Source: Candidatus Methanomethylophilaceae archaeon
GTDB taxonomy: Archaea > Thermoplasmatota > Thermoplasmata > Methanomassiliicoccales > Methanomethylophilaceae
Length of the DNA: 64,000 nt
Assembly (NCBI GenBank): GCA_050950505.1
Contig: JBMNHS010000001.1
Span: 832,001-896,000, forward strand
Direction of reading: 5' to 3'
This document shows, in pieces, positions 13,598-45,001 of the stretch. The notes beneath the pieces were generated by a model. It was not told the DNA's origin. It was given only the letters and a program-made list of their open reading frames with translations, and searched no databases. Positions within the stretch are counted from its first letter, which is position 1. Each line of letters opens with the position of its first letter. A program made the translations under genes and the position numbers.

Positions 13598-13709
13598 GAT
13601 ATACCGAACAATCATTTCAGTATTAAACCTGTCGGAGTTCTTGTGCACTGAGCGCATATCAAAATCCGTGAAGAGTTTAATTACAACACTCCGTATCCGG
13701 AATGTGGCA

Positions 13710-28241: not shown

Positions 28242-28260
28242 GAAGATGCACCAAAGAGGG

Positions 28261-28286
28261 CCTGAAGGGGGATGTGCCCCTTCAGG
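28261..28286 (-). other. 10-bp intra-operon stem-loop between binding protein and permease
   Basis: CCTGAAGGGG-N6-CCCCTTCAGG perfect inverted repeat. Confidence 0.6.
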
Positions 28287-29436
28287 TTGAGGGTACTCTC
28301 ATTTTTTCATCCATGGTTCTGGAGTCCGAAAGATAGAAGATTATTATATCGGGCTTTTCGCTGACTATTTGTTCATCAGAAAGCTTCGAATCCATCAATT
28401 CAAGATAATCCGCTATGTTTTTCAAATCCAGTATGTCGGTAAGCAGATTCGTAATGAGGTTTTCGGATCCGGCGGCCTTTCCTGCCGCTGTTTCGACATA
28501 GACCTTTTTCTTACTTTCAAGTTGCATTTTTGATATGGCATCCTTCATGACGTGAATTTTTATCTGGATGTTTTCTATGAAATCCTGTGTGTTATCTATA
28601 CCCAAAAGAGTGCCTATCATTTCCGTGTTGCTCATAACCATGCTTAGTGAGTTGGAAAGAACAAATACGAATTTTACTTTCCCGCCTGTGTTACTTTCGA
28701 TTGTCTGAACGGTGCTTTCTGTAATTTTGGCATTTGTGGATCTTATGTTGTACTCGGTCATGAGTATGACGATATTTTCATCTTCGCCGCATTCATCCGC
28801 AAGTTGTTGGGAGTAAGTCATAAGATTCTCTCCAAGATCGAAAATCAAAATACCCTCGGGAACGTCGATTGAGAAATCTCTTTCCAAGGCTGTCTTACAG
28901 TCTGCCGGCATGCCGACTACGATTTCCCATAGTTTTGCAGTTGCCAAAGGACTGTTGTTTTTGGTCTCATCGAACTTTGCACAAAGTATGTTGTAAATGG
29001 TATCGACGTACGCAGCGGTGTAGCAAACGCATTTTTCGGGTATGCTGTCAATCGTTGTTGTGGCATTGGGTCCTGTTTTTCCCGTGCTGGATGAATTAAA
29101 AGTACCGACTTCCAAAGAACCGTCGGGATTAACGGTAACGCAACTGTCAAAATTCAAGGCCGATCCGGCAGTTATATCATCCATTGTCACGCCCTCCGTC
29201 GAAGGCAGATTGCCATACGCACCTTTATACAGGTCGTCAAGGAGAGATATCAGACTGGGTGTCGAATTGGAGTAGGCTCCGTTAATTTCCAGTACGGTCG
29301 GATTCCAGGAATAAAATCCCCCTCGGTTTTCCGGTTCATCTGTATTGTTTTCTTTATTGCCGAACGAGACATATGTTGCGGTGCCTGCAATAACAAGTAT
29401 AATTATCGTTGCAATTGCTATGGTTTTGCGGTTCGC
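28282..29436 (-). CDS. Membrane-anchored ABC substrate-binding protein (helical-backbone type); start codon anomalous
   Basis: Frame stays open 5' of the track ORF and adds NRKTIAIATIIILVIAGTATYV anchor; C-terminal SDEQIVSEKPDIII. Confidence 0.75.
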   Translation of the reverse strand, partial: ANRKTIAIATIIILVIAGTATYVSFGNKENNTDEPENRGGFYSWNPTVLEINGAYSNSTPSLISLLDDLYKGAYGNLPSTEGVTMDDITAGSALNFDSCVTVNPDGSLEVGTFNSSSTGKTGPNATTTIDSIPEKCVCYTAAYVDTIYNILCAKFDETKNNSPLATAKLWEIVVGMPADCKTALERDFSIDVPEGILIFDLGENLMTYSQQLADECGEDENIVILMTEYNIRSTNAKITESTVQTIESNTGGKVKFVFVLSNSLSMVMSNTEMIGTLLGIDNTQDFIENIQIKIHVMKDAISKMQLESKKKVYVETAAGKAAGSENLITNLLTDILDLKNIADYLELMDSKLSDEQIVSEKPDIIIFYLSDSRTMDEKMRVPST

Positions 29437-29464
29437 CCCAACACATACAGCAAGAATTATTTAA

Positions 29465-29489
29465 AGAGTTGGACTACTAATCCAACTCT
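29465..29489. promoter_or_regulatory. Operator box 1 (binding protein 1 operon)
   Basis: AGAGTTGGA-CTACTAA-TCCAACTCT perfect 9-bp arms next to minus-strand TTTAAATA. Confidence 0.75.
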
Positions 29490-29642
29490 GTTTTTCATAC
29501 AGTCTCATTATTTCATGCTTAAAAGAAACAATACTCTGTATCATTCAGAATTTTTTAAGGGAATCATTTAAAAACTGATGAATTAAAAATTGGAAAGAGG
29601 TTTTTGATATCCCTGTGGGATATCACAACTGGGCTCTCAGTT

Positions 29643-30020
29643 TCACTTGGGAACGTCGGTCTGCGAGCAGTCCAACGGAGGTCCCGTTTCGTAAAGAGGC
29701 GGAGGCTTGCTGCGAACCGCATCGATAACGCCGTCAGGAACCTCGAGAAAGTCCACAAGATCCTGGTTGGAAACGTATTCACCGCTGGTGATTATCGCTC
29801 CCATGAATTCCGCGATGGGCAAAACATCGAAGCCTTCTTCCTCTACGAGTTCTTGGGCCTCGCCGTCACCTTTAACATCGGCGGCAGACTTGCAGTCAAC
29901 ATATTCCACTTTGAAGCCCTTCTTCAGAAGGGCATCCATAGAATCTTTGAACCTGTTGTAGTCGGAAGCGTACTTTTTACGGGCTGCTTCCGAATCATAG
30001 ACTATGATGACATTGTCCAT
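29643..30020 (-). CDS. ArsD-like protein lacking the Cys triad
   Basis: ELVEEEGFDVLPI...GAIITSGEYVSNQDLVDFL resembles the ArsD C-terminal half. Confidence 0.6.
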   Translation of the reverse strand: MDNVIIVYDSEAARKKYASDYNRFKDSMDALLKKGFKVEYVDCKSAADVKGDGEAQELVEEEGFDVLPIAEFMGAIITSGEYVSNQDLVDFLEVPDGVIDAVRSKPPPLYETGPPLDCSQTDVPK

Positions 30021-30211
30021 AAAATTGTGATGTCTCTGAATCTTATATTTTACTTTTGTATTCTTATGCCGTCTCTGTTGTACATTAAAGTACATATCAT
30101 TCTCAATATGTTCATTATCAATTTTAACGGAATCCCGATATTTTTTGAGATTGCGTTTTTATTTTTATAAAAAAAGCGAAGTTTATTCCCTTGCGGCGGG
30201 ATACGGATACA

Positions 30212-30904
30212 ATGTCAGTTTTCAAAAACATAAAAAGTTCCGAAGTATTTCGGCTGAAGAATCTGATTGCGGAAGGAAAAGGCCAGACAATCAGTTACGG
30301 CATGCTGGACAACTCCGATGTCACGATTTACATGTATTTCTTTGACGAAGGAGAGGGAATAAGCGAGATGAAGTCCCCGTTCCAGAACCTGATCAAAGTT
30401 TTGGACGGAAGGTTGAGAATCGAAGGTGAATCAACCGCGAAGCTGGATGCCGGTGATATATATGTCGTGCCCCACAACACCGATGTGGTGATCACCGCCG
30501 CAAAATCTGTTAAGTACCTGAGCATATTACTTCCCATGGAAGGCCAACTTATCAAAAACATAGATCTGTCGACCAAACTGATGGCGAAGGAACTGATTGA
30601 TTACCGCCCCGGACAGGTTGCCAATCTGACTCTGGTGAACAAGCCCGGTCTCAACTTATCGGTCATAGCCATTGACGAGGGGGAAAGTCTCAAAACCCAC
30701 ACGGCCCCCGGCGATGCCATGGTCATTGCTCTTGACGGTGAAGCAAACATCACCATCGCCGATGAGGAATTCACCGTGAGGGAAGGCGAAACGATTGTCA
30801 TGCCCAAAGATATCCCTCATGCGGTGTTAGGAGTCACTCCGTTCAAGTTCCTGTTGGTTTTGGTGAAGGACGCCGAAGCGAAGAAACCGATAACCCCGAA
30901 CTGA
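30212..30904 (+). CDS. Bicupin protein
   Basis: Two cupin repeats; second retains HTAPGDA...IPH. Confidence 0.85.
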   Translation: MSVFKNIKSSEVFRLKNLIAEGKGQTISYGMLDNSDVTIYMYFFDEGEGISEMKSPFQNLIKVLDGRLRIEGESTAKLDAGDIYVVPHNTDVVITAAKSVKYLSILLPMEGQLIKNIDLSTKLMAKELIDYRPGQVANLTLVNKPGLNLSVIAIDEGESLKTHTAPGDAMVIALDGEANITIADEEFTVREGETIVMPKDIPHAVLGVTPFKFLLVLVKDAEAKKPITPN

Positions 30905-31017
30905 TCGGAAACAGATTGTCAATCAAACATTTTAGTCAATTTATTATATTTATAAGTCTGAATATAAATATAATCTGCAAAGACGGTTTTCAGTGTCAAA
31001 TCTGTTAAAAAGAAGAG

Positions 31018-31090
31018 TGCGGATGCCGGGATTTGAACCCAAGTTCTAACCTTGGCAAGGTCAAGTGATAACCAGCTACACCACATCCGC
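31018..31090 (-). tRNA. tRNA-Gly(GCC)
   Basis: GCGGATG/CATCCGC acceptor stem, TTGCCAA anticodon loop, TTCAAAT T-loop; upstream TATA. Confidence 0.9.
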
Positions 31091-31172
31091 GGATAAATTC
31101 TTGATTGGGTTTTTCAATATATACTTTTTCATCAATTTTGTAATCTCTTGGATTACAAAAGCGGAATAGCCA

Positions 31173-31763
31173 TCAATAGTAACCCAAAATGGCGGCTCTG
31201 GCAGTTACATGTTTCATCTCGGGGGCCTTTCTGTTTATCCCGATGATGGCACTGGAACAGCCCGCACCCGATTCTACATCGAAATGTTCCCTCAGCATAA
31301 TGTCCGTATATCTGCCGGGATAGAACAGCGAAGCGGATTCCACATCTGGATCGTCCTTAAGGAAATCAGTCTTTATCGGTTTCATGACAACGGCAACGGG
31401 ACATTCTGTGACTCTGTTGGAAAACAGCACAAAGTCTTCCGCAAGCCATATGTTATGGACACAGGCGGAATAGGTATCTTTCATGGAATGATCAATCATC
31501 TTACCTATTTCGATTCCCAGATTATCATAAATCACGATGGAGCCGTCCATGTGCTGTTCAAATAAACCGTTACTGAAAACACATACCACATAAGAACTTT
31601 CAAGACACACTTTTGCGGCCTGATTGTAAAATGGCATTCCCAACCATTCTCTGGCGAGGGATTCTTCTCTTATGACTCCGTAAAGAGTCTTTGCATCCAA
31701 TATGTGTGCCTCGGTGACATTCGGATGACTCTTGATTGTCTTCAAAGTGTTTGAGATTTCCAT
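31173..31763 (-). CDS. Hypothetical protein (paralog of 12616-13155)
   Basis: Intact ORF with its own operator/TATA; shared GMP, IWL-DFVL, FYP-TD motifs. Confidence 0.8.
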   Translation of the reverse strand: MEISNTLKTIKSHPNVTEAHILDAKTLYGVIREESLAREWLGMPFYNQAAKVCLESSYVVCVFSNGLFEQHMDGSIVIYDNLGIEIGKMIDHSMKDTYSACVHNIWLAEDFVLFSNRVTECPVAVVMKPIKTDFLKDDPDVESASLFYPGRYTDIMLREHFDVESGAGCSSAIIGINRKAPEMKHVTARAAILGYY

Positions 31764-31779
31764 TGGGGGTGTATTGTTG

Positions 31780-31798
31780 GATGGATATATAATCCATC
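31780..31798. promoter_or_regulatory. Operator box 2 (contains TATA of 31763 gene)
   Basis: GATGGAT-ATATA-ATCCATC perfect 7-bp arms. Confidence 0.75.
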
Positions 31799-31864
31799 TG
31801 TTTTAATCACCATGAATTTCATTCAATTCCGGGATGTCTGTTCAGATAAGTCCGATCCTTAAAT

Positions 31865-32611
31865 TCAAACCTTTTTGGTTTTTACCAGATAGTAATTGAT
31901 TGCATAAAACAGTAAACAGAACATAATCATAACGATAAACGAGAGAAGGGGGAAGTTCCACCCTAAAGCCCCGGCTCTTATACACTCGCTGGCGTGGGTG
32001 AGGGGAATCAGATACAACAATTTTTGGAATATATCAGGCAATATGGAGACCGAGAAAAACGTTCCGCACAGGAATGTCATGGGGAGAATCACGAATGTAT
32101 TGAAGACCGCCATGCTTTGATGGGTCTTCGCCAGCAATGCGGCCATTTCCCCCAACAGCGCGAAGGTCAAACAGGACAGCATGAGACAAGCGATGAACGG
32201 CAATGAAAATATCAGCTTATCAGTCAGGAGCAACCCCAAGAGAAAAATCAACAGACAACTTATGAGACCTCTGATGAATCCGAGAATAGCCTTGCCGATT
32301 ACTATCGAAGACGTTCGCAAAGGACAAATCATCATTTCATCAAAACTTCTGTAATACAGTCTTTGCACATTCAGACGGGTGGCGGTGGAAGAGAAAGAAG
32401 CGTTCAAAGAAGAAAGTGCCACAATACCGGGTATTATGAATGCGATGTACGGAACTCCATCCATCTCAACACCTTGACCCATTCCGTATCCGAAGGCAAT
32501 CAGATAAAGTACCGGACTGACAAGAGTCATGGCCATGATGCTGACGAAGTTATGTCTCATGAAACGCAAATCGCCCCATGCCACACTGTAAATCTCCTTG
32601 AGTCTTCCCAT
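31865..32611 (-). CDS. ABC-2 type exporter permease (NodJ/DrrB-like)
   Basis: YIAFIIPG, PMTFLCGTFF, PLTH; about 6 TM segments. Confidence 0.9.
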   Translation of the reverse strand: MGRLKEIYSVAWGDLRFMRHNFVSIMAMTLVSPVLYLIAFGYGMGQGVEMDGVPYIAFIIPGIVALSSLNASFSSTATRLNVQRLYYRSFDEMMICPLRTSSIVIGKAILGFIRGLISCLLIFLLGLLLTDKLIFSLPFIACLMLSCLTFALLGEMAALLAKTHQSMAVFNTFVILPMTFLCGTFFSVSILPDIFQKLLYLIPLTHASECIRAGALGWNFPLLSFIVMIMFCLLFYAINYYLVKTKKV

Positions 32612-33480
32612 CAGTTTTTCACCGTCCTTCCGGTAAGTTCGACGAAACAATCTTCCAGATTTGTTCTTCTGATCAGAATTTCTCCGTTGGTCATACTGTT
32701 GCCGTATTCGGACGCGGAAGCCCGGTCGGGAAAATATTTGTAGACTGATTTACCGTCGGGATCGGTTGCCACGACGGTGAATTTACCTAAACTTTCCGAC
32801 AGATCCGACGGAGTGCCGTCGGCGATTATTTTGCCGTTGTCTATTATGCCGACCCTGTCGCACAGAGCCTGAGCCTCTTCGATGTAGTGAGTCGTGAGAA
32901 ATACGGTGGTGCCGTCTTTGTTCAGCAACCGTATGAGTTCCCAAAGCAAACGTCTGGCTTTAATGTCTAATCCGACAGTGGGTTCATCAAGGAATATGAT
33001 TTCCGGCGAGTGAATTATGGCACAAATTATGGAAACTCGTTTTTTCCATCCTCCGGACAAGGAGTCTATTTTGCTGTCGAGATATTCATCCAATGAGAAA
33101 TATTCGATAAGTTCCGCGATTCTTTCTTCTCTTTTATTTTTTGGAATTTGGTGCATCAACGCCCTGTGACGCATGTTTTCCATGACCGTCAAATCTTTGT
33201 CGAGGCTGATATGTTGCTGTATGACGCCTACGCTGACTTTTGCCTTCATAATGTTCTTTTTCAGATTGTGGCCGTTGATGATTACGGTCCCGCCGTCAAA
33301 GTCTGTCAATGTCGAGAGAATTCTTACTGCTGTCGTTTTTCCGGCTCCGTTAGGTCCGAGGAAGCCGTATATTTCCCCCCTCTTCACTTTCAGGTCGATG
33401 CCGTTCAATGCGACCTTCTGGTCGTATCTCTTCACAAGATTTTCAGCAATGATTATGTAATCTTCATCAGACATACCCAC
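32611..33480 (-). CDS. ABC exporter ATPase (NodI/DrrA-like)
   Basis: GPNGAGKTT, LSGGW, LDEPTVGLD, TTHYIEEA, LEDCFVELTG. Confidence 0.92.
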   Translation of the reverse strand: MGMSDEDYIIIAENLVKRYDQKVALNGIDLKVKRGEIYGFLGPNGAGKTTAVRILSTLTDFDGGTVIINGHNLKKNIMKAKVSVGVIQQHISLDKDLTVMENMRHRALMHQIPKNKREERIAELIEYFSLDEYLDSKIDSLSGGWKKRVSIICAIIHSPEIIFLDEPTVGLDIKARRLLWELIRLLNKDGTTVFLTTHYIEEAQALCDRVGIIDNGKIIADGTPSDLSESLGKFTVVATDPDGKSVYKYFPDRASASEYGNSMTNGEILIRRTNLEDCFVELTGRTVKN

Positions 33481-33523
33481 AAACCCCGTGCAAATCTCTC
33501 GCCGTATGCGTTAAGTCATATAC

Positions 33524-33542
33524 ATTGGATATATAATCCATA
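33524..33542. promoter_or_regulatory. Operator box 3 (exporter operon)
   Basis: ATTGGATATATAATCCATA. Confidence 0.75.
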
Positions 33543-33601
33543 TTGTGGCTGATCAATTTATGAATCTCCTATTCTGATGGAAATTCCATAACAATAAATA
33601 A

Positions 33602-33620
33602 ATTGGACTATATATCCAAT
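33602..33620. promoter_or_regulatory. Operator box 4 (importer ATPase 33644)
   Basis: ATTGGACTATATATCCAAT. Confidence 0.75.
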
Positions 33621-33643
33621 CAAGTGGCGGAGGATTCTGCGGA

Positions 33644-34501
33644 ATGAAAATCATTATCGATAATATCGAATTCGGATACACGAGCACACCCGTTCTTAGG
33701 AACATAGAATTGGATCTCGGGGGAGCACAACTCGTTTCGATATTGGGTCCGAACGGAGTGGGAAAATCCACCCTGATTCACTGCATAAACAATATTCTGA
33801 CTCCTTCATCGGGTGTGGTTACCGTCAACGGTAAAGACATAACTTCGTTCAAGCTCAAAGAATTGGCCAAAATCATGGGATACGTTCCTTACTCTTCATC
33901 GGACAGATTCCCCCTCACGGTAGTCGATACCGTTTTGATGGGAAGGCATCCCCACAGCAACTGGAAGTCCACGGAAAAAGATTTGGATGTGGTTTATGAC
34001 ACCCTGGAATTGTTGGGGATAGAGGATTTGGCCATGAGACCGTTCAATGAACTGAGTGCGGGACAACACCAGAAAGTCATGCTGGCCAGGGGATTCGCCC
34101 AAGAACCTAAAGTTCTGCTTTTGGATGAACCGACCTCGAATCTTGACATCCGGCATCAGATGGAAGTGACCATGCTTCTGAAGGAAATGTCCGTAAGAAA
34201 AGGAATTCTGGTCATAATGATAAGTCATGACATCAATATAGCCTCCAAATTTTCGGATAAAATGATATTGATGAGCGAAGGGACCATCTATTCCGTGGGA
34301 ACTCCGGGGGAAGTCATCACCGAAGACAACATACGCAGTGTTTACGGTGTCAATTCAAAAATCATAGATGACGAAGGAACACCTCACGTGATACTGCAAA
34401 ATCCCATAGGGGGATACAGGACCGAGTCCGCGGGAAGCGCAATCGAAAGCACTGTTTTGGACGTCCGTTCGGACAGTGGCGTGCCCGTCACCGGTCGGTG
34501 A
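33644..34501 (+). CDS. Fe-complex/cobalamin ABC transporter ATPase
   Basis: GPNGVGKST, LSAGQ, LLLDEPT, SHD. Confidence 0.92.
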   Translation: MKIIIDNIEFGYTSTPVLRNIELDLGGAQLVSILGPNGVGKSTLIHCINNILTPSSGVVTVNGKDITSFKLKELAKIMGYVPYSSSDRFPLTVVDTVLMGRHPHSNWKSTEKDLDVVYDTLELLGIEDLAMRPFNELSAGQHQKVMLARGFAQEPKVLLLDEPTSNLDIRHQMEVTMLLKEMSVRKGILVIMISHDINIASKFSDKMILMSEGTIYSVGTPGEVITEDNIRSVYGVNSKIIDDEGTPHVILQNPIGGYRTESAGSAIESTVLDVRSDSGVPVTGR

Positions 34502-37500
34502 CTTCCTCTATTCTCTCTTCGGTCTGCATGAATAATTCGGCTACGCGTCTCTTTTCATCTTCGGTCGCGTTCCAAAGACCTCTGTTTATGGCTTCCTGAA
34601 GACGTTCCAGTATACTCATCATGGCGAAAGGATTCTCATCCTTCATCCATTCCCGGGTATCCGTGTCTTCCAAAAATTTCTCCAATATGCCTCTGTACAT
34701 CCAGTCATCGCCGGCATCGGATGTGGCATCCCAACCGATCAGATATTCAGTGAGATTGGCAATTTCTGATACGCCTCTGTATCCGTGTTGTTTCAAACCA
34801 TCGAGATATTTGGGGTTGAAAACTTTGCTTCTGAATACGAAGCTCAATTCCTCTTCGGTGTGTCTTATTTTCGTATTTTCGGGATTGGAACCATCCCCGA
34901 TGACGGACATGGCGTCTTTGTTCCCGTAACTTTTTACGAATGCGTTCAGACCTCCGAGGTATCCGTAAACATCGTCAATGTCAATTACATCAAATTCCCG
35001 GTCGGGCATGTTTTTCACGGTTATCTCCGCACTGCCGAATCTTTGTATGAACTGATTTTTCATGGGCACACCCCGAAATTTGCGCCCGTAACCGTAACTT
35101 CCCCAGGCAACATATATGTCGGCCAGATCCTGAGCGGTTTCCCAATTTCCGGATTCAATGGCGTGATTTATTCCGGGTCCGTACATACCGGGCGCGCTCC
35201 CGAACACCCTTACAGAAGATTCCGCTCTGGCATCCTCCGCAGACATCCCCCTTTCTATTTTGTTCAGGATATCCTTTCTGAGATTGGCGGAAAGATAATT
35301 TTCCTCGTCGGTCTCGTCCAGTTCCGAAACAAGGTTGACGGCATCGTCTATCATGTCTATGAGATTGGGGAAAGTGTCCCTGAACAAACCTGTGATTCTT
35401 ACGGTAACGTCTATTCTCGGTCTTTTCAATTCACTGAGAGGGATTATTCCCAAATCGATTATTTGGCCTCCCGTGCGGGACCATACGGGTCTGACTCCCA
35501 TGAGCCAGAGTATGTATGCCATGTCATCCCCCCCGGTTTTCATTATATCGGTTGCCCATATTATGAAGGCGACGTCACGGGGATACGTTCCCTTTTCATT
35601 GACGTATTTTTCAATCATCTGATCTGCCATCCCGCATCCTACTTTCCATGACGCCCGGCTGGGGATGGCCCCGGGGTCGGTGCCGTAATAATTTCTTCCT
35701 GTCGGAAGTATGTCGGCGTTGCCCCGGGTCGGAGCCCCGGAAGGTCCGGGAAGGACAAAATTACCGGCCAGGGCATCCATGGTGAATTTTATTTCATCTG
35801 AAGTCTTTATCAAATTCGGAACCAACGTGTTGCACAGATATACCAGGGATTTCTCGAAATCTTCGGAAAGTTTTCCGTACGATTTTTCGGTTGCAGAAAG
35901 GCATTTTTCCAAATCGTATTCCAAATTTCTGAATTCGATGAGAAGTTTTCCGAATTCCATTTCTGCGTATTCGGCAAGTTCGCTGTTGAGTCTGCCTCCG
36001 GAGCCGAGGACGGAAGGATTCTTCAAACATTCCAATATATCGATTCCCAGCAGTGATGTGAAAGAATTTCTGAGGGACCGTATGTCTCCGTTGTCCATGC
36101 GAGTCAGGGAATACACCGCATCGTCCATACGTTCGTTTTCGGGTGCTTTTCCAAGTATATGCAATCCGTTTCTGATGATTGCGTCTTTCATGTCTGAAAT
36201 GTAATCGTGAAGTTTCGGCATATGGGTTTCAAAATCTTCGGCGTCGGTGTCGGTCAGCCCCAGATCCCCGAGCATATCGGCTTCTTTCACGGCTTCATAC
36301 ACGCTTTCCACCAGAGCGGTCTTTCGGTCTCCCTTAACGGTTCCTGACATTTTGAGATATTCTTGCAAAGGAACTTCTACGGAATCCAGATCGTCGTAAC
36401 CTCCGGCCCTGCCCAATATGGGGTTCATATGTCCGATAAGAACGGCCTCGGACCTTCTTTTTGCCTGTATACCCTCACCGGGGTCGTCGATTATGTAAGG
36501 ATATATATTGGGAAGCCCGTCCAACACCACATCCGGAAAACATTTTCCGGAGAGGCCCACATTCTTTCCGGGCAACCATTCCAATGTGCCGTGTGTGCCC
36601 ACATGTATAACGGCATTGGCTCCAAAATCATTCTGAATCCATCGGTAATATTCCAGATACTGATGGGGTATGGCGGCATGGGGATCGTGGTACAGGGATT
36701 CCATTTGTTCTGAGAGCCCCCTCATCGGTTGATATCCGATGAAGACGTTTCCCTTCAGAATGCCGGGAATGACAAATCGCCCTCCGTCCACGGATATTTC
36801 ACCCGGCGGCGGCCCCCAGCTCTTTTCCATCAAAATACGGTTGAATTCAGGAATCTTGTCATAATGGATAAGGTACTCTTTGTTGTTCACAAGAGCAATG
36901 GCTCTCTCTTCGACATCGCGCGTCGAAGTCCAGGAAATATCGTTGGTCACGCCGTCCAAAAATTCTTGAAGAAGACCTTTGCTGTTTTCGGGGAGAACGC
37001 CGACGTTGTATCCTTCATCTTCCATACTTTTCAAAAGACGGTACACACTTTCTATGGAATCCAGACCTGATGCGTTGCCTACGCGACCGGAGTCTTCGCG
37101 GGACTGCCACAGTAAAATGGCAACCTTTTTTTCTTTGGCGGGGGTATGGCGCAATTTGGCCCAATTCCTTGCCAATTTTACAAGGTGTTCTATTCGATCT
37201 GGTATGGGAAGCGCCCGTTTGGCCGTCATTAGGCCCTTGCCTACGGAACTAACGGGGACCGTGATGATTTGACCGTCGATTTCGGGATATGCAACCTGAT
37301 TTTTTATTTCATTTTTGTTCAACCCTTCCGACGAGGCCTCATAATCAAAATACCCTCCGCTGGCGGTCATTGCCTGGAAAACCGGGACGTTTGTCACGGC
37401 TTTGAAGAAATTGTCTTCGTCCTTTGTTTTCATGCCTTCGTCGGGCTCTCTGGAATTGAACAATTGTGAGAACGGAGAGTTCAGTATGATGGCGTCAACC

Positions 37501-38234
37501 AAGCATTCCCCGTTCCTGAAAAAATATTTTTTTACAAAATCAACGGTTTTCGTTGTACCCGCGCTGCTGCTCGTGACGGCAAAGAAAAAAGGTATGGCGT
37601 TCATTTTTTGTTTTTCGATTTCTCTGATTAAAGCATTTATGTGTTCCAAATTGTCATATATCCACAAGTTGGAAGTGAACATGATGCCAATTGCCGGTTT
37701 GGACAGGTCCAATTCCGAAATATAATCTTCAAAGGTAATGCCTCGTGGAAAATCCGGGTGGTATATTCCGTCGGTCGGCTGTTCAGCAATGTCGGGAAGA
37801 GGAAAGTCGGTTCCGTGCAGTATGTTGTGCAACCAGACAACGGGACCCTTTTCGTTTTCAAATCCTCTGGCGGCAAGATATCTGACCACGGTTTTGTATG
37901 ATTCGTCATCCCCCTTGAACAGATTCCGGTATATCATCGTGACATCGGAATTCCCGCTGATAAGCAATACATAAGCGGAACACTCCCTCAGAACTTTCTC
38001 GTATCTTTCAAATTTTTTGAACCTGTTCGGGTCGGACATGCACCTCACCAGTACCAAATCCGCGTCATTCGTATTTTTCACGAGTTCGTTGTACAGAAGG
38101 ACATCCTCATCCGCATCGTATTCGTTGTAACAGTGCAGTTCCAGTGAAAAACCGAATTCCGAAGCGACGGCTTCCGCAGGTTCGATCATTGTTTTTGAAT
38201 CCGTTGTCTGAATGGAAAGATTGACGATTTTCAT
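34488..38234 (-). CDS. cobN: CobN/ChlH-family chelatase large subunit
   Basis: PEIDG, HVGTHGTLEWLPGK, GEGIQAKRR, LPTGRN, RPRIDV, GLFRD; start MKIV at 38234. Confidence 0.92.
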   Translation of the reverse strand: MKIVNLSIQTTDSKTMIEPAEAVASEFGFSLELHCYNEYDADEDVLLYNELVKNTNDADLVLVRCMSDPNRFKKFERYEKVLRECSAYVLLISGNSDVTMIYRNLFKGDDESYKTVVRYLAARGFENEKGPVVWLHNILHGTDFPLPDIAEQPTDGIYHPDFPRGITFEDYISELDLSKPAIGIMFTSNLWIYDNLEHINALIREIEKQKMNAIPFFFAVTSSSAGTTKTVDFVKKYFFRNGECLVDAIILNSPFSQLFNSREPDEGMKTKDEDNFFKAVTNVPVFQAMTASGGYFDYEASSEGLNKNEIKNQVAYPEIDGQIITVPVSSVGKGLMTAKRALPIPDRIEHLVKLARNWAKLRHTPAKEKKVAILLWQSREDSGRVGNASGLDSIESVYRLLKSMEDEGYNVGVLPENSKGLLQEFLDGVTNDISWTSTRDVEERAIALVNNKEYLIHYDKIPEFNRILMEKSWGPPPGEISVDGGRFVIPGILKGNVFIGYQPMRGLSEQMESLYHDPHAAIPHQYLEYYRWIQNDFGANAVIHVGTHGTLEWLPGKNVGLSGKCFPDVVLDGLPNIYPYIIDDPGEGIQAKRRSEAVLIGHMNPILGRAGGYDDLDSVEVPLQEYLKMSGTVKGDRKTALVESVYEAVKEADMLGDLGLTDTDAEDFETHMPKLHDYISDMKDAIIRNGLHILGKAPENERMDDAVYSLTRMDNGDIRSLRNSFTSLLGIDILECLKNPSVLGSGGRLNSELAEYAEMEFGKLLIEFRNLEYDLEKCLSATEKSYGKLSEDFEKSLVYLCNTLVPNLIKTSDEIKFTMDALAGNFVLPGPSGAPTRGNADILPTGRNYYGTDPGAIPSRASWKVGCGMADQMIEKYVNEKGTYPRDVAFIIWATDIMKTGGDDMAYILWLMGVRPVWSRTGGQIIDLGIIPLSELKRPRIDVTVRITGLFRDTFPNLIDMIDDAVNLVSELDETDEENYLSANLRKDILNKIERGMSAEDARAESSVRVFGSAPGMYGPGINHAIESGNWETAQDLADIYVAWGSYGYGRKFRGVPMKNQFIQRFGSAEITVKNMPDREFDVIDIDDVYGYLGGLNAFVKSYGNKDAMSVIGDGSNPENTKIRHTEEELSFVFRSKVFNPKYLDGLKQHGYRGVSEIANLTEYLIGWDATSDAGDDWMYRGILEKFLEDTDTREWMKDENPFAMMSILERLQEAINRGLWNATEDEKRRVAELFMQTEERIEEVTDR

Positions 38235-38247
38235 AGTCCCGACTCTG

Positions 38248-38266
38248 ATTGGATAATACATCCTAT
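38248..38266. promoter_or_regulatory. Operator box 5 (cobN)
   Basis: ATTGGATAATACATCCTAT, one mismatch to the core consensus. Confidence 0.65.
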
Positions 38267-38384
38267 TCCGATATATAGTATCCTTTTTCTGAATTTGAAC
38301 GGAAATTTCGGAAGATATCAAACAAGTTCGGACACACCTTTCGGCGAACCGGCAAGAATCGGGAAAGAACCGTGAAAGACAATA

Positions 38385-38403
38385 GATGGATATATAATCC
38401 AAT
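38385..38403. promoter_or_regulatory. Operator box 6 (chlI-chlD)
   Basis: GATGGATATATAATCCAAT. Confidence 0.75.
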
Positions 38404-38427
38404 ATATGTTCTCCGTTTTGATTGGAA

Positions 38428-39456
38428 ATGACGGTCAAACAATATTTTCCCTTTGCGGCCATCGTGGGACAGGAAGAGATGAAACGGGCATTGCTTCTCA
38501 ATTTGGTCGACCCCGGCATAGGCGGAGTTCTCATCAAAGGGGAGAAAGGTACGGCAAAGTCCACCGCAGTACGTTCCCTCAGTCAGATTATGTCTGAAAA
38601 AACAGTTGTGGAGGGATGTCCTTTCGAATGCGGATACGACGGGGACCGGGGATATTGCCCTTATTGCGAAGAACGGTTGTCTGACGGTGAGGTGCTCAAC
38701 CCCGTATATGTAAAAACCAGAGTCGTCGAATTGCCGCTGAATGCCACCGAAGACCGCGTGGCAGGCACACTGGATGTGGAGCATATTCTGAAAATCGGTG
38801 AAAAGAAATTTGAACCGGGAATATTGGCGGACGCAAACGGCAATGTATTGTATGTGGACGAAGCAAACCTACTGGATGATCATATTGTGGATATGTTGCT
38901 GGACTCGGCAGCCATGGGCGTCAACTATATTGAAAGAGAAGGTGTGTCGTTTACCCATCCCGCAAGGTTTGTGCTGATAGGAACCATGAATCCGGAAGAG
39001 GGGGACATCAGACCTCAGCTGATGGACAGATTCGGCCTTTCCGTGGATGTCAGAGGCGAAAAAGACACGGAATCCAGGAAGGAAGTAATCAGACGCGGAA
39101 TAATGTTCCACGAAAATCCTGAAAAATACATCGAACTCTTTGCGGAAGACACAACGGAATTGAAAAATAAGATATCGGATGCCCGCAAACTCAGAACTTC
39201 GGTTACTTACAACGATGACGTTCTCGATGCTATCGTTTCGGTCACGACCCATTTCGGTGTCGACGGTCACAGGGCGGATATAACGCTATTGAAGGCGGCG
39301 ATTGCCAATGCGGCCTTGGAAGGCAGAAACAAAATCACGAAAGAAGACATATCGGTTACCGCACCCCTGGTCATTTCACATCGCATGCGCAGAAGACCTT
39401 TTGAAGAAACATCCTTCGACAAAGAGGAGCTCGAAGAATGCCTGAAGGCATTTTAA
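38428..39456 (+). CDS. chlI: Chelatase AAA+ subunit ChlI/BchI-like
   Basis: FPFAAIVGQ, GEKGTAKST, TEDRVAG, YVDE, MNPEEG, DRFG. Confidence 0.93.
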   Translation: MTVKQYFPFAAIVGQEEMKRALLLNLVDPGIGGVLIKGEKGTAKSTAVRSLSQIMSEKTVVEGCPFECGYDGDRGYCPYCEERLSDGEVLNPVYVKTRVVELPLNATEDRVAGTLDVEHILKIGEKKFEPGILADANGNVLYVDEANLLDDHIVDMLLDSAAMGVNYIEREGVSFTHPARFVLIGTMNPEEGDIRPQLMDRFGLSVDVRGEKDTESRKEVIRRGIMFHENPEKYIELFAEDTTELKNKISDARKLRTSVTYNDDVLDAIVSVTTHFGVDGHRADITLLKAAIANAALEGRNKITKEDISVTAPLVISHRMRRRPFEETSFDKEELEECLKAF

Positions 39457-41327
39457 AATTCCCCCTTTCGGCAGTTTACAAAGCCGACGAAGCAAAAAAA
39501 GCAGTGTCATGCGCCGCAATCGATCCCGGAATCAAAACTATATTGATCCGAGGTCCACCCGGAACTGCCAAGTCAGTCATTGCTAAATCTTCGGGAGACG
39601 TATTGGGAAAGAACGTCGTGAACATACCGTCAAACACCTCCGAGGGGGATTTGTTCGGCGGTGTCGATATGGAATCTTCCATCAAAGAAGGCAGAATTGT
39701 GCCGCTTGAGGGTCTATTGGCTTCCGCCCACAGAAATGTGGCGGTTGTAGACGATGCGAATCTGATGGATAGGAAAACGTTGTATCAGCTTCTTGATTCG
39801 GTTATTCTCGGAAGGGTGGAAGCGGAGAGGGAAGGAGTATCCGTATCGTATCCCTGCGATACGGTTCTGATAGCAACTGCATGTTTGGAAGAGTCCGACA
39901 TGCCCCTTCATTTACTGGATCGTTTCGACATATGCGTTCATACGAAATCCATGGAAGATAAAAATGTGAAAACCGAAATTCTGAGGAGGATGAACGGTTT
40001 TTCAAACAATACAAAGGAGTTCATCAAGGAATGGGACGGAGAAAAGGAATCCAATCTGTCAAAAATATCCAATGCCGTGAAAATATTGCCTCTGATTACC
40101 GTCTCGGATGAATTTCTGACCATTATGGTTGAACTGTGTGAAAGGATGGGCGTCGACGGCCACCGGGGAGATTTGGCCCTTTTCAGAGTTTCCCGGGCTT
40201 TGGCGGCTCTGGCGGGAAGGGACGAAGTCATCACCGAAGATGTGGAAGCGGCCGCAATAATGTGTCTAGCCCACAGAAGACGGATTTATCCACCGGATCC
40301 GGAAGAACCGGAAGTTCCCGGGGAATCCCAGCAGGACGAAAAACCGGAGAATCCTGATAATCCTGAAAAGCCTAACGAACCCGAAGATAAAGAACCGAAT
40401 GACTCCGAAAACGAAGAAAGCGAACATGATGACAAGGAGGAAACAACGCCCCCATCCCCGGCACCGAATTTTGACGATATGATGTTCAACATAGGGGAGC
40501 AGTTCCGCGTGATAGATTTTCTTACCGGCGTACCGGAAAAAATTGAACGGTCCAATGCGGACAAAGGCAAAAGAAAACGGGCGGTCAGTACCGACGGTTC
40601 GGGAAAATATTCCAACTACGAAGTTCCAAAGGGCCGTTTGACAGATTTGGCTCTGGATGCCACAATACGTTCGGCGGCGCCTTACCAGAAGTACCGGGAT
40701 CCCGGAAAACTCGCCATCGCAATAGAGAAACAGGATCTGAGGCAAAAAGTACGGGAAAAACGAACTGGGGCCACAATAATGTTCGTAGTGGATGCCAGTG
40801 GATCCCTGGGTGTCAGAAGGAGAATGGAAACGGTCAAAGGTGCGGTTCTTTCGATGTTGAAAGACAGTTATGTCAAAAGAGACAAAATAGGCATGATGGC
40901 CTTCAGAAGAACGTCTGCGGAATTAATACTGCATCCGACTCATTCGGCGGAATATGGGTATAAAAAATTAAAAGATCTGCCCACAGGCGGTAAGACGCCC
41001 TTGTCCGATGGAATAGGTTCGGCAGCAAAATTCATGTCATCTTACTCCCGCTCGCACACGGGTGAAAAATGTTATATCGTTTTGATAACGGACGGCAGAG
41101 CAAATGTTCCCTTGAAAGAGGGGGCTGATGCAAACGAAGAAGTTTTGGAAATAGCCGAAAAAGCGATTATTCCCGGATTGAAGTGGATCGTCATCGATGC
41201 ATCCGCAGGTTATGTGAAATTTGATAATGCCGAAAAACTTGCCGAAAAGCTGCAGGCAGCATATTTCAGTATAGACAATCTCAATGCCGATAAATTGGCC
41301 GGCAGCGTAAGAATGGTCGTCGATTGA
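39438..41327 (+). CDS. chlD: Chelatase subunit ChlD/BchD-like (AAA, acidic Pro linker, VWA)
   Basis: GPPGTAKS, E/P/D-rich linker, DATIRSAAP, VDASGS MIDAS, TDGRAN. Confidence 0.92.
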   Translation: MPEGILKFPLSAVYKADEAKKAVSCAAIDPGIKTILIRGPPGTAKSVIAKSSGDVLGKNVVNIPSNTSEGDLFGGVDMESSIKEGRIVPLEGLLASAHRNVAVVDDANLMDRKTLYQLLDSVILGRVEAEREGVSVSYPCDTVLIATACLEESDMPLHLLDRFDICVHTKSMEDKNVKTEILRRMNGFSNNTKEFIKEWDGEKESNLSKISNAVKILPLITVSDEFLTIMVELCERMGVDGHRGDLALFRVSRALAALAGRDEVITEDVEAAAIMCLAHRRRIYPPDPEEPEVPGESQQDEKPENPDNPEKPNEPEDKEPNDSENEESEHDDKEETTPPSPAPNFDDMMFNIGEQFRVIDFLTGVPEKIERSNADKGKRKRAVSTDGSGKYSNYEVPKGRLTDLALDATIRSAAPYQKYRDPGKLAIAIEKQDLRQKVREKRTGATIMFVVDASGSLGVRRRMETVKGAVLSMLKDSYVKRDKIGMMAFRRTSAELILHPTHSAEYGYKKLKDLPTGGKTPLSDGIGSAAKFMSSYSRSHTGEKCYIVLITDGRANVPLKEGADANEEVLEIAEKAIIPGLKWIVIDASAGYVKFDNAEKLAEKLQAAYFSIDNLNADKLAGSVRMVVD

Positions 41328-41409
41328 ATACTCAATCCGAATGGCTTTCACAGATTTTATTTAGAATAAATAATAAAAAGTAAGAAGTTTTCAGATTCCG
41401 AACGGTGAA

Positions 41410-42744
41410 TCAGGACGCCTTGGCCGTGTCGTAATCCGCCTTGGTTATGGTGGTGGTCATATCCAATTTTACATCAAAGCTTCCGTCGGGACCGGTTCCT
41501 TCAAGGTAACCGAGGAATGCATCCACATATTCCTGGAATATTTTATCGCCGAATCCTTCTTCGAACAATTCAGGATAGAATATCTCGGCACAGTATGCGA
41601 CTCTGCAGGGGACAGGCATACTGGCATTGATGAATACCATGTTTCCGTCAATGTATGCTTTGCCTGCGTGCAAATAACTGTTATTTGCATTTTCCCAGGT
41701 TTCTACAACATCATCGACAATATAGTCTCTGGTTCTGAAACTTATCATCCATTCGGCGGCATCGAACATTGTGATTGCATCTTCAGTTTCCAATTTTGAG
41801 GATGTGTCACCGGGGAAAATGGTTAAGTTGTTTCCTCCGGCAGCCTCAGTAACCTGCGTGTAAGCGGAATCAATTTCGGTTATGTAACGCCACATGGTCA
41901 ATGAAATGCATTTAACCTTTTCATCATCGGAAAGATCCTTCAGCTTGTTATCAATCATATCATACAGCGCATGAGTTTTTTCGTAGTAATCTCTGGCCTG
42001 TTCTTCCACTTCGGTACCGAGCAATACGCCTATGGTGAGACAAGCATTGACCTGATCTATGGGGGCTGAGCACTTGATTCTCAGAACGGGTATGCCTGCG
42101 GCATTAATATCATCGATTTTATCGGAAACGGCGGCATCCGTCATTGCAAATATTGCGCCGATACCGCCCTCCTCATGCAGGTCTGCATCCAGCGCGATAA
42201 GGCCACTGTAGTTGGCATTATTTATTTCCCTTGTACCCGCAAGTTTTGTAGCGCCCGCATCGACAACAACCTGCTGTTCCACGGCGTAATTGCTTGCAAC
42301 AAATCCTGCAATACTGTTTTCACCGCCGATCAGTATGAACATGGACAGCATATCCGCATTGACGGTAACCACATTTTTCAAAGGATACTGTACTTCAATG
42401 ACAGACTCGTTCTGATCGATCACAAAAGCTTTGGTGGGCTCACCGTCGATAATATTTTGAACGATTTTCCTATCGGCCGCAGTGACCTTTCCGTCATTGT
42501 TCGCATCGGCGAATTCATAATCGGACAGTTCCTTTTTACCGTCGATTATGTCATTGATTATATCTATGTCATCTTGGTCTATACGATCGTCCTCGTTGGC
42601 ATTACCCAGTATGGGCAAAGACGTGTGAGGTACGTAATCTCCGGAACCGCCGCTTCCTTTGTAAAGGAACACCCCGGCACCGATGACCGTAGCGGCTATG
42701 ACAAGGATAGCCGCAATGATCAGAGTCATATTTTTATTGTTCAT
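41410..42744 (-). CDS. Membrane-anchored ABC substrate-binding protein with dockerin-like Ca-binding repeats
   Basis: N-terminal TM; GNANEDDRIDQDD and DANNDGKVTAAD repeats; AEIFYPELF end motif. Confidence 0.85.
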   Translation of the reverse strand: MNNKNMTLIIAAILVIAATVIGAGVFLYKGSGGSGDYVPHTSLPILGNANEDDRIDQDDIDIINDIIDGKKELSDYEFADANNDGKVTAADRKIVQNIIDGEPTKAFVIDQNESVIEVQYPLKNVVTVNADMLSMFILIGGENSIAGFVASNYAVEQQVVVDAGATKLAGTREINNANYSGLIALDADLHEEGGIGAIFAMTDAAVSDKIDDINAAGIPVLRIKCSAPIDQVNACLTIGVLLGTEVEEQARDYYEKTHALYDMIDNKLKDLSDDEKVKCISLTMWRYITEIDSAYTQVTEAAGGNNLTIFPGDTSSKLETEDAITMFDAAEWMISFRTRDYIVDDVVETWENANNSYLHAGKAYIDGNMVFINASMPVPCRVAYCAEIFYPELFEEGFGDKIFQEYVDAFLGYLEGTGPDGSFDVKLDMTTTITKADYDTAKAS

Positions 42745-42754
42745 ATTACACCTA

Positions 42755-42773
42755 CTTGGATGTATAATCCAAC
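42755..42773. promoter_or_regulatory. Operator box 7 (binding protein 2)
   Basis: CTTGGATGTATAATCCAAC. Confidence 0.75.
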
Positions 42774-42844
42774 TTATAATAATCCACTCCATATTAAGCC
42801 GTTTCGCATCTACAGATTAAAGGAAAAAAATCATTGTTATATAT

Positions 42845-42863
42845 GTTGGACATATTATCCAAC
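42845..42863. promoter_or_regulatory. Operator box 8 (permease pair)
   Basis: GTTGGA-CATATTA-TCCAAC, 3 nt before the ATG. Confidence 0.75.
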
Positions 42864-42866
42864 CAA

Positions 42867-43943
42867 ATGAGGGATAACGTTAGTAAATTTGAAGAATACC
42901 GAAGGGGAAATTCCTCCAAAATACTCTTCATAATCGTGTGCGTCGTGCTGTTGTTGATAGCGGCGCTAGTGTCCCTCTCAGTCGGAACAAGAATAGGATT
43001 CGGCAGAACTGCCGAGGTTGTGTTCAACCATTTAACCGGAGTGACGTATCCCAAAAGGTCGCCAGAATGGTGGGAAGATTACTATATTTTTCAAAACGTA
43101 ATGCCTGAAGTCGTGGTGGCGATCATAGCGGGAGCGGGTCTCGCAGTCACCGGAGTCATCATGCAGAGCATAATGAACAACCCCTTGGCAGATCCATACA
43201 CCACAGGTATTTCCTCAGGCGCCAGTCTTGGAGCCGTAACTGCCATAATAATGGGTTACACATTCAGTTCCATCGCAGGTGAAATGGGCATTGTGTCCAA
43301 TGCATTCATCGGCGCAATGGTTCCAGCGCTGATTATTATTCTGTTATCGAAACGAGTGGGCAATTCTCCGGCGACGATTATCCTCATTGGTACTGCAATC
43401 TCATATTTCTTCAATGCTTTGACAACGCTGATTATGATTACCGCCGATTCTGAAGCCCTCCAATCGGCGTATATGTGGCAGATAGGCAGTGTTGCCGGTG
43501 TTTCATGGAGCAGCATACCTTTGATGCTGGTAATTGTGACGGCTTCTTCGATTTTTGCAATTTTGCTTTCCCGATCGTTGAACCTTATGACATTGGGTGA
43601 TGAAAGCGCAAGATCGCTGGGTATGGATGCGGAAAGGCTCAGGATGGTATGCATCATGGTTTCTTCATTTCTCATTGCGTCCATCGTCAGTTATACAGGA
43701 ATAATAGGATTTGTAGGTCTGGTTTCCCCCCATATAGTAAGATTTGTTGTAGGAAGCGACAACAGATTTGTTATCCCCGCATCAATAGTCGCGGGGGCGC
43801 TTTTGCTCACGGTGGCGTTGATGCTGTCCCGCTTGCTCAATTCCTTCGGATACATTCCGATAGGTGTGGTCGTTTCGTTCATAGGGGCACCCATATTCCT
43901 GTATCTCGTGGTCCGGGACAAGTCGGGGAGGGAGATATGGTGA
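42867..43943 (+). CDS. FecCD/BtuC-family permease
   Basis: NPLADPYTTGISSGA, GIIGFVGLVSPH. Confidence 0.92.
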   Translation: MRDNVSKFEEYRRGNSSKILFIIVCVVLLLIAALVSLSVGTRIGFGRTAEVVFNHLTGVTYPKRSPEWWEDYYIFQNVMPEVVVAIIAGAGLAVTGVIMQSIMNNPLADPYTTGISSGASLGAVTAIIMGYTFSSIAGEMGIVSNAFIGAMVPALIIILLSKRVGNSPATIILIGTAISYFFNALTTLIMITADSEALQSAYMWQIGSVAGVSWSSIPLMLVIVTASSIFAILLSRSLNLMTLGDESARSLGMDAERLRMVCIMVSSFLIASIVSYTGIIGFVGLVSPHIVRFVVGSDNRFVIPASIVAGALLLTVALMLSRLLNSFGYIPIGVVVSFIGAPIFLYLVVRDKSGREIW

Positions 43944-45001
43944 ATTCCAAATCCTTGCAGAAGAAAATGTACCTGTCTTCTGCCCGTAAAAAAATAATGT
44001 TCATATTATTATGTGCGATACTGACGGTTATTGTATTCATATACTATCTCAAAGTGGGATTTTATTCGACGACCATGTCGGATATTTTCGAAATAATATC
44101 CGCGCATTTCACAGGCAAAGAAGTCGATTATCAGGCAGATTTGATTATATGGGGTAAAAGAATCCCTCGTGCAATAATGGCCGTATTCTGCGGAGCCAGC
44201 CTTGCGGTCGGAGGGGCAGTTATACAGACGGTGTTAAGAAATCCCCTTACGGATTCTTACACCACAGGCATATCTTCCGGAGCCTTTCTCGGAGTAACGT
44301 TGTTCCTAATACTGGATATATCGTTAATCCCATCCGCTCAGAACCTGTCGCTAGTGTTCAATGCCTTTTTGTTTTCATTGATACCTGTTGCCGCAATATT
44401 GGTGGTTTCAGGAAAGAAGCGGGTGACGGCGTCCAGACTGATACTCACCGGAATAGCGGTCATGTATTTGTTTTCGGCAACGTCGACTTTGCTGATGGTT
44501 TCGACAGACCATGAGACTCTCTCCGAAGCATATTCCTGGAGAATAGGCACGCTTGCAAACACCGGTTGGATATCCGTACCCATTGTCGTGACGGTCACCG
44601 TCATATGCATTCTGTTTCTGTTCAGCAAATCCAGGGAATTCAACATTGTTTCGGCCGGCGAGAAAGTTGCACAATCCCTCGGTGTCAATTCGAAAAAAGT
44701 CACCGTCATGGCTTTGATTGTCGTGGCCTTCATGACGGCGAGTTCCGTCAGTTTCACGGGAACAATAGGATTCGTCGGACTGGTCGCTCCTCATATCTCA
44801 AGAATTTTCATTGGATCCGATTGCAGATATCTGATCCCGGCATCGGCCTTCGTCGGAGCTTTGTTTTTATTGTCAATGGATGCAATTGCGAAAGTTTCCG
44901 GAGATTTGGGACTGCCTGTGGGAGTCATCAGTGCACTGATAGGTGCGCCGCTGTTCGTGATAATTCTGGTAAAAAACAAAAAAACAGCCTGGGATATATG
45001 A
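43937..45001 (+). CDS. FecCD/BtuC-family permease
   Basis: RIPR, RNPLTDSYTTGISSGA, GTIGFVGLVAPH; GGAG RBS. Confidence 0.92.
   Translation: MVNSKSLQKKMYLSSARKKIMFILLCAILTVIVFIYYLKVGFYSTTMSDIFEIISAHFTGKEVDYQADLIIWGKRIPRAIMAVFCGASLAVGGAVIQTVLRNPLTDSYTTGISSGAFLGVTLFLILDISLIPSAQNLSLVFNAFLFSLIPVAAILVVSGKKRVTASRLILTGIAVMYLFSATSTLLMVSTDHETLSEAYSWRIGTLANTGWISVPIVVTVTVICILFLFSKSREFNIVSAGEKVAQSLGVNSKKVTVMALIVVAFMTASSVSFTGTIGFVGLVAPHISRIFIGSDCRYLIPASAFVGALFLLSMDAIAKVSGDLGLPVGVISALIGAPLFVIILVKNKKTAWDI

Follow-up and report, generated by a model that had tools for sequence, protein, structure and literature searches.

A promoter palindrome of Methanomassiliicoccales and DUF4443 proteins as candidate readers of a predicted corrinoid regulon

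What reads the palindromes that stand before chelatase and transporter genes in a methanogen chromosome, and to which signal does the reader answer? The question is raised by a stretch of 64,000 nucleotides (nt) from a Candidatus Methanomethylophilaceae archaeon, here called the window, which is C1:832001-896000 of a source genome (G000) of 1,326,829 bp in two contigs, C1 and C2. Eight copies of a palindrome with the core TGGA-N7-TCCA, here boxes 1 to 8, had been noticed in the window from its letters, and the original prediction assigned them to a DtxR/MntR-like metal-sensing repressor. The comparisons described below lead us to favor, with moderate confidence, a different reading: that the palindrome is the operator of a protein-based corrinoid (B12) regulon in Methanomassiliicoccales, and that it is read by a DUF4443 winged-helix regulator. 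Members of this order are methyl-reducing methanogens, which make methane from methyl compounds by way of corrinoid proteins; their habitats are guts, digesters and landfills, in which microbes trade corrinoids. To our knowledge, the regulation of B12 uptake and synthesis in archaea is largely unknown.

The palindrome in the window and the genome

The core occurs exactly ten times in the window, against 1.50 expected (standard deviation 1.24), and none of 100 dinucleotide-preserving shuffles reached that count; the motif is thus clearly commoner than chance. All eight palindromes of the original prediction were found where it had placed them. Seven are among the exact matches (cores at 29470, 31782, 33526, 33604, 38387, 42757 and 42847), and box 5 (core at 38250) has a single mismatch, its right arm reading TCCT for TCCA. 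The three remaining exact matches (5109, 11148 and 18274) lack the TTGGAT/ATCCAA flanks of the 19-bp operator consensus, R-TTGGAT-N5-ATCCAA-Y, which has an A/T-rich center. A symmetrized weight matrix was trained on the eight window boxes and applied to the whole genome. The training boxes score 20.8-24.7 on their own matrix, nothing else in the window reaches 12, and the next three matches there score 11.3. Genome-wide, 16 sites score 19.3-26.1, eight of them the training boxes and eight new; below these come 17.7, 17.3 and 16.9, and then a continuous tail.

The window boxes lie at promoters, and each distance below is counted from the edge of the box to the first start codon in frame. Box 1 (29468..29486, GTTGGACTACTAATCCAAC, score 22.8) is upstream of a minus-strand BtuF-like/FecCD/ATP-binding cassette (ABC) operon and abuts a TTTAAATAA element, and box 2 (31780..31798, GATGGATATATAATCCATC, score 23.6) stands 16 nt before the ATG of a gene for a protein of 196 amino acids (aa). 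The other six fall, as had been predicted, into three divergent pairs with two boxes each. In the first pair, box 3 (33524..33542, ATTGGATATATAATCCATA, score 22.1) is upstream of an ABC-2 type transporter, at 43 nt, with an ATG that by eye is likelier at 49 nt, and box 4 (33602..33620, ATTGGACTATATATCCAAT, score 23.8) is 23 nt before the ATG of an ABC ATPase gene. In the second, box 5 (38248..38266, ATTGGATAATACATCCTAT, the copy with one mismatch, score 20.8) is 13 nt before the cobN ATG at 38234, and box 6 (38385..38403, GATGGATATATAATCCAAT, score 24.6) is, by eye, 24 nt before the chlI ATG at 38428. In the third, box 7 (42755..42773, CTTGGATGTATAATCCAAC, score 22.5) is 10 nt before the ATG (42744) of a gene for a membrane-anchored protein of 444 aa, and box 8 (42845..42863, GTTGGACATATTATCCAAC, score 24.7) is 3 nt before the ATG at 42867 of the first of two FecCD permease genes.

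The boxes sit on, or just downstream of, TATA-like sequence, which bears out the earlier suggestion that they occupy positions where binding would block initiation. Across the sites the gap before the start codon varies between 1 and 67 nt, and at some promoters a TATA-like element is present apart from the box. We conclude that the eight palindromes are real and, by their sequence and placement, predicted protein-binding sites.

Gene content and conservation of the sites

What do the genes behind the sites have in common? One new site separates two divergent operons, cbiD-cbiG-cbiJ/cbiET and a set of three TP_methylase genes (cbiL/F/H-like) with cbiC. Three others lead operons: a BtuF-like/FecCD/ABC/methyltransferase operon at a distance of 1 nt; one for a Peripla_BP_2 protein and a fusion of PQQ-propeller and FecCD at 14 nt, where a second site of score 16.6 lies alongside; and, at 17 nt, one for a protein of no known family, a FecCD permease, an ABC ATPase and a NifH/NifD fusion. 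A NifH/CfbC-like gene has its site at 4 nt and mtaC-mtaB at 67 nt, and at the gene for a zinc-ribbon repeat protein the site covers the start codon. The eighth, scoring 20.8, is at C1:899488, 3.5 kb past the window end; it falls within the coding sequence of cas3, in a CRISPR-Cas locus of Cse1 type, and is taken as a chance match. Behind the top 16 sites are BtuFCD-type importers (7), cobN and chlI-chlD (2), the divergent cbi operons (1), a NifH/CfbC-like gene (1), mtaC-mtaB (1), an ABC-2 transporter (1) and unfamilied or zinc-ribbon genes (2), the last site being that inside cas3 (1); the site of score 17.3 precedes precorrin-2 dehydrogenase-hemA. Because the site-bearing genes serve tetrapyrrole and corrinoid synthesis and BtuFCD-type import, they point to a B12 regulon and not to an iron regulon.

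Corrin synthesis, BtuFCD-type uptake, cobalt transport, CobW and CobN/ChlID-type chelatases are typical targets of cobalamin riboswitches, and it is the bacterial regulons of this kind (RF00174) that the present gene set resembles. The difference lies in the signal, a palindrome in promoter DNA with a predicted protein reader as against an RNA leader. A search of 135,053 bases, made up of the window together with seven regulon loci, gave no RF00174 match reaching the gathering score. In function the regulon is like those controlled by the cobalamin riboswitch, but it does not belong to that class. The operator is also like the "CBL-box," which is likewise a conserved DNA signal found before B12 genes in archaea without B12 riboswitches. 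Rodionov et al. (J Biol Chem 2003) reportedly predicted this box for a hypothetical B12 regulator in some archaea, and are said to have named no regulator protein for it. The window operator may be the CBL-box; if it is, the operator was already predicted and the reader would be the new part.

We compared 31 genomes of the order, in which the window's own family is called f1 and the others f2-f6. The strict 17-mer TTGGAY-N5-RTCCAA is present in 29 of the 31, with 1-11 copies each among the matches listed. To see which genes the sites face, 20 site loci were taken from four relatives (all eight listed sites of G024, six of seven of G030, seven of eight of G018 and two of four, picked arbitrarily, of G017), and 57 genes facing sites were scanned. 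One apparent G024 site, beside nadE (L016), proved to be a tRNA anticodon arm and was dropped. Ten of the 19 loci left face cbiA/cbiP, cobD-cbiB-cbiZ, precorrin-2 dehydrogenase-hemA-hemB, cbiMNQO, BtuFCD-type importers, chlI/chlD, a corrinoid protein or cobW-RACo. Two more face a zinc-ribbon/DUF4443/NifH-NifD operon and a ribonucleotide reductase, and the remainder face HypA-like zinc-ribbon genes (one), unfamilied proteins (five) and apparently unrelated genes (one).

The sites are also kept upstream of orthologues. Among the 18 of 31 genomes with cbiD, 14 have a site of at least 13 within 130 nt upstream, and 11 of those sites score at least 19; no second matrix match of at least 13 was found in these cbiD loci, which are about 4 kb each. 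Of the cobN loci, 11 extend over the 5' end, and 7 of these have a site of at least 15 within 170 nt. In the ten genomes of f2-f6 cbiD was not found with the query used, and the strict motif is still present in eight of them. In one such genome, G030, the sites face importer, corrinoid-protein and cbiA-cbiP genes; such sites at importer and late genes, where no cbiD was found, fit control of corrinoid uptake and late synthesis. Comparison thus supports the earlier claim that the boxes would be operators of one regulon.

An apparent conservation across the whole phylum was rejected as an artefact. In 81 genomes the shorter pattern TGGAT-N5-ATCCA was found 418 times as against 29 for a reversed control, but that control is biased low because it contains TAG/CTA. 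When 20 core matches were fetched from two distant genomes, 18 lay in apparent coding DNA and two were tRNA anticodon arms. Arms of this kind match TGGAT-N5-ATCCA and give false sites; besides L016 in G024, they account for L117 and L118 in G059.

A candidate reader and its rivals

Which protein reads the sites? The only DNA-binding genes that recur beside them encode DUF4443 proteins, in which a CggR_N/PH0730-like winged helix is joined to a DUF4443 domain. By Pfam, G000 has a short gene of 194 aa in the window (4934-5518, plus strand), in an operon with metK (3651-4904), and a long DUF4443+DUF2111 paralogue of 320 aa (C1:789046-790008); the third DUF4443 gene of the genome, an accessory one of 212 aa, adjoins the site-bearing zinc-ribbon gene. 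When the best DUF4443 homologue was taken from each genome, 9 of 30 loci (105 kb) held a site of at least 19.8, as against about 1.3 expected from the G000 site density. In each of two genomes from a different order of the class, G113 and G122, exactly one strict site is present in about 2 Mb, lying about 35 and 320 bp, respectively, from the DUF4443 gene; three genomes that are 98-99% complete and have no DUF4443 match have no strict site.

The long paralogue appears to carry a site of its own. In 9 of 20 relative loci, from five families, a palindrome scoring 15.9-25.1 lies between a TATA-like element and the gene's own start, 3-8 nt off, whereas only 0.9% of 1285 G000 genes score at least 15 in the upstream 100 nt. 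In five genomes of the window's genus, G000 included, the same place scores 11-13.5, and in G001 it scores 9.2; in G024 and G028 the palindrome is degenerate. Every DUF4443 paralogue seen shares G-x-G-E-G-S-x-R in the winged helix, and because of this more than one paralogue may read the same half-site.

From these data we propose that DUF4443 proteins probably read the boxes and would thereby do the job of bacterial B12 riboswitches, and that the short protein of the window is a candidate reader or a close paralogue of one. The candidate matches PH0730 of Pyrococcus horikoshii (PDB 2p8t) over the winged helix-turn-helix and DUF4443 domains (profile E 3.7e-25). PH0730 has a solved structure that was deposited as hypothetical, with no function; the long paralogue differs from it in adding DUF2111. 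The DNA-binding domain of the candidate also matches CggR_N, but CggR/SorC proteins carry a sugar-phosphate-binding C-terminal domain, and the DUF4443 candidate has none. A literature search returned no paper that mentions DUF4443 or DUF2111, and the passages on archaea and B12 regulation in the reviews consulted name no archaeal B12 regulator.

How might such a protein act? A DUF4443 winged-helix regulator, presumably a dimer, would bind the palindrome. At boxes 10-24 nt from the start, the A/T center would coincide with the expected TATA box of a transcript with a short leader or none; boxes 1-4 nt from the start would cover the initiation region, and box 1 would be at the position of the B recognition element (BRE). 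Since the sites overlap BRE/TATA or fall between TATA and start, a bound protein would exclude TBP/TFB or RNA polymerase. The archaeal repressors MDR1, NrpR, LrpA and TrmB bind on TATA or immediately past it, and the operator resembles theirs in being a palindrome placed for such exclusion; the protein family, the half-site and the controlled genes are different. By analogy with riboswitch logic, the liganded DUF4443 form would be the repressor, so that when the cofactor is sufficient the BtuFCD-type importers, the CobN/ChlI/ChlD chelatase, the cbi genes and related genes would be shut off. We infer the corrinoid effector from the gene content only.

Several observations weigh against a corrinoid regulon read by DUF4443. 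Repression and the exact promoter geometry are deduced from distances to start codons. As to the signal, a test of B12 logic failed: nrdD, the gene for the B12-independent reductase, has a weak upstream site in just 2 of 24 genomes. (metE was not found in the source genome, and the PF02867 reductase of that genome has no site in the matrix scan.) In addition, the cbiMNQO, cobW, HypA-like zinc-ribbon and chelatase members would equally fit a cobalt or nickel signal. This leads to an alternative that keeps the operator, and probably the same DUF4443-type reader, and changes the signal to cobalt or nickel, an intermediate of tetrapyrrole synthesis or a different end product (F430, for example), in place of the finished corrinoid. 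It would account for the sites at cbiMNQO, cobW, HypA-like, CobN/ChlID, hemA and NifH/NifD (CfbC/D-like) genes and for the 22 genomes in which the nrdD test was negative. It would also suit the long paralogue, whose DUF2111 domain was found only in the two methanogens among 14 control genomes, and whose gene adjoins genes for an atwA-like double ABC ATPase and a weakly McrC-like protein. However, most sites are at BtuFCD-type (Peripla_BP_2/FecCD) importers and at corrin-ring or salvage genes, not at ion transporters; the motif persists in the eight f2-f6 genomes where cbiD was not found, with the G030 sites at importer and late-synthesis genes; and nickel has a separate NikR gene in the window (13157-13726, NikR_C at 13202-13429), with no box nearby in the matrix scan, NikR operators themselves not having been searched for. 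We therefore regard a signal other than the finished corrinoid as unlikely, if worth keeping in mind.

The other observations against a DUF4443-read regulon concern the reader. In f1, the palindrome at the long paralogue's own promoter has a 9-nt, not a 5-nt, center, and scores just 11-13.5; this form can also be read as two overlapping, normally spaced sites with one mismatch each. In G016 and G018 no palindrome is visible at that promoter. The universal short DUF4443 locus of f1 has no nearby site in any of 15 loci (L033-L047). Elsewhere, the order metK, short DUF4443, site and secreted PQQ-propeller (transporter) gene is kept in f2, f4 and f6, and also in another order of the class, where the sites score 25-26.6; the adjacency is largely one inherited gene order and therefore does not represent many independent events. 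The DUF4443 gene could thus be a neighbor or target and not the reader, and some other transcription factor would then read the boxes. We consider this quite improbable. No other DNA-binding gene recurs among the 57 site-facing proteins of the four relatives, and the lone strict sites of G113 and G122, each beside a DUF4443 gene, the siteless genomes without DUF4443, and the own-promoter sites of the long paralogue all speak against it.

Much weaker is the DtxR/MntR-like repressor of an iron or manganese regulon with which the original prediction began, and which we now think very improbable. The boxes do resemble DtxR/IdeR/MntR operators, as 19-bp palindromes with GG and CC mirrored, placed at uptake-gene promoters and with repression by occlusion proposed; FecCD-type importers can carry iron chelates; and the genome encodes a single DtxR-family gene (C2:65268-65939, with Fe_dep_repress, Fe_dep_repr_C and FeoA domains). 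However, that gene has feoB directly downstream, and no matrix match of at least 10 was found within 2 kb of the pair (C2:63-67 kb). The gene content is that of B12 and not of iron, with new sites at cbi, mtaCB, hemA and NifH-like genes, and no DtxR-family gene is present among the site-facing genes scanned in relatives. The half-site TTGGAT, too, presumably differs from the IdeR/DtxR box. The original prediction proposed looking for sites at feoB, ferritin, cbiMNQO or a dtxR gene; in this genome feoB and dtxR have none, and a cbiMNQO operon has one, in a relative. Finally, that the boxes are no operator, but chance matches, a repeat or a core-promoter element of a special kind, is hardly credible: the center is TATA-like and the bare TGGAT-N5-ATCCA occurs in coding DNA and tRNA anticodon arms, but the shuffles, the variable distance to the start with a separate TATA-like element at some promoters, and the retention of the motif at orthologous promoters while the flanks diverge all argue against it.

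A corrinoid regulon read by DUF4443 suggests a wider proposal, which we put forward tentatively and with less confidence than the regulon itself. DUF4443 proteins may be the missing archaeal B12 sensors, ligand-binding repressors that act at TTGGAT-N5-ATCCAA and, in several lineages, stand in for the cobalamin riboswitch. In methyl-reducing methanogens, a copy that was duplicated, fused to DUF2111 and placed under its own control may link the supply of corrinoids with tetrapyrrole metabolism (F430) more widely. If true, this would give a function to DUF4443, to DUF2111 and to the unexplained structure 2p8t, and would make B12-controlled genes predictable from sequence, including the unexplained CobN/ChlID chelatase, the ABC-2 transporter and the zinc-ribbon proteins. 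Since the operator is defined and the candidate readers are few, the question can be tested at the bench.

Some further observations concern the DUF4443 genes. The long DUF4443+DUF2111 gene (L078, G000 C1:788736-794333) is divergent from the gene for the atwA-like double ABC ATPase and the weak-McrC gene, with a DUF6951 gene next; the McrC match has E 4e-4, below the Pfam cut-off. A similarity search with the DUF2111 part returned only DUF2111 clusters and a weak SpoVT_C/GAF-like lead at 0.81. The site beside the DUF4443 gene is a variant, GGTGGACAATATATCCACC, in one family of another order (G131 and G123; L126/L127), where the gene it faces carries DUF4430.

Genes behind the boxes and neighboring features

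The operon behind box 1 (26339..29446, minus strand) is by Pfam a BtuFCD-type importer, with an ABC ATPase (26339-27193), a FecCD permease (27186-28241) and a Peripla_BP_2 binding protein from 28282. The start at 29436 that had been inferred for the binding-protein gene holds only approximately. This BtuF-like gene has no in-frame ATG, GTG or TTG for 82 codons past the upstream stop (window 29380-29470), and an ATG about 20 nt from box 1 is out of frame with it across a GGGG run. The 5' end of the gene is uncertain because there is no canonical in-frame start; the cause could be an error in the homopolymer, a true frameshift or a start codon outside the usual set.

The 196-aa protein behind box 2 (31173..31763, minus strand) belongs to no Pfam or NCBIfam family and has a distant homologue in G024 that is also behind a site (L015:3393-3950; BLASTP 22% identity over 139 aa, E 8e-9). 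The minus-strand ABC-2 type transporter of box 3 (Pfam) consists of an ATPase (32611-33480) and a permease (31865-32650), and the same pair adjoins chlI/chlD, with sites, in G024 (L013). Box 4 serves an ABC ATPase gene on the plus strand (33644-34501, Pfam). Behind box 5 is a CobN-type large chelatase subunit (34488..38234, minus strand), with a Pfam CobN-Mg_chel match of E=0 and 894.6 bits on NCBIfam TIGR02257, for which the cut-off is 822; behind box 6, on the plus strand (38428..41327, Pfam), are the AAA+/VWA chelatase subunits, ChlI-like (to 39456) and ChlD-like (39438-41327).

The 444-aa secreted or anchored protein behind box 7 (41410..42744, minus strand) has no Pfam family. By BLASTP it is 40% identical over 398 aa to L011:2578-3936, and because such homologues in G024 precede FecCD permeases behind sites, it is probably a substrate-binding component. 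The two FecCD-family permease genes behind box 8 (42867..45001, plus strand; Pfam) run to 43943 and from 43649 to 45001, the second start being tentative.

Several unusual proteins stand behind the sites. The FecCD permease fused to an N-terminal PQQ-like beta-propeller of about 650 aa is found at L001:1-2987 (G000 C1:112411-115434) and at L024:6429-9356. NifH-like and NifD-like domains share a single protein at L005:9274-11047 (G000 C2) and L012:5469-7622 (G024); the NifH-like part of the fusion is under the cut-off of the NCBIfam CfbC model, and the gene is the last of a site-bearing BtuFCD-type importer operon. Repeated zinc-ribbon proteins with a weak HypA match lie behind sites in three genomes (L002, G000 C1:198618-200555; L012; L023), and in two lineages their genes adjoin an extra DUF4443 paralogue.

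A motif reminiscent of the boxes, ATGGATGGATGAYAYNTCCAT, is present in three direct copies in a single intergenic region (L008, G000 C1:615103-615391), where the copies score 12.6, 17.7 and 16.1 and the flanking genes encode an RNA 3'-phosphate cyclase and an aldehyde dehydrogenase. These copies could be a related yet distinct site, or a repeat.

Within the window, a 428-aa helix-turn-helix protein (25021-26307) was considered as the regulator and set aside, having just a weak C-terminal winged-helix match and no link to the sites. A very A/T-rich stretch of 230 nt precedes its open reading frame. From 24000 to 46000 the G+C content is 0.43-0.48, compared with about 0.49-0.53 on both flanks, and this low-G+C block may mark the edge of an acquired block.

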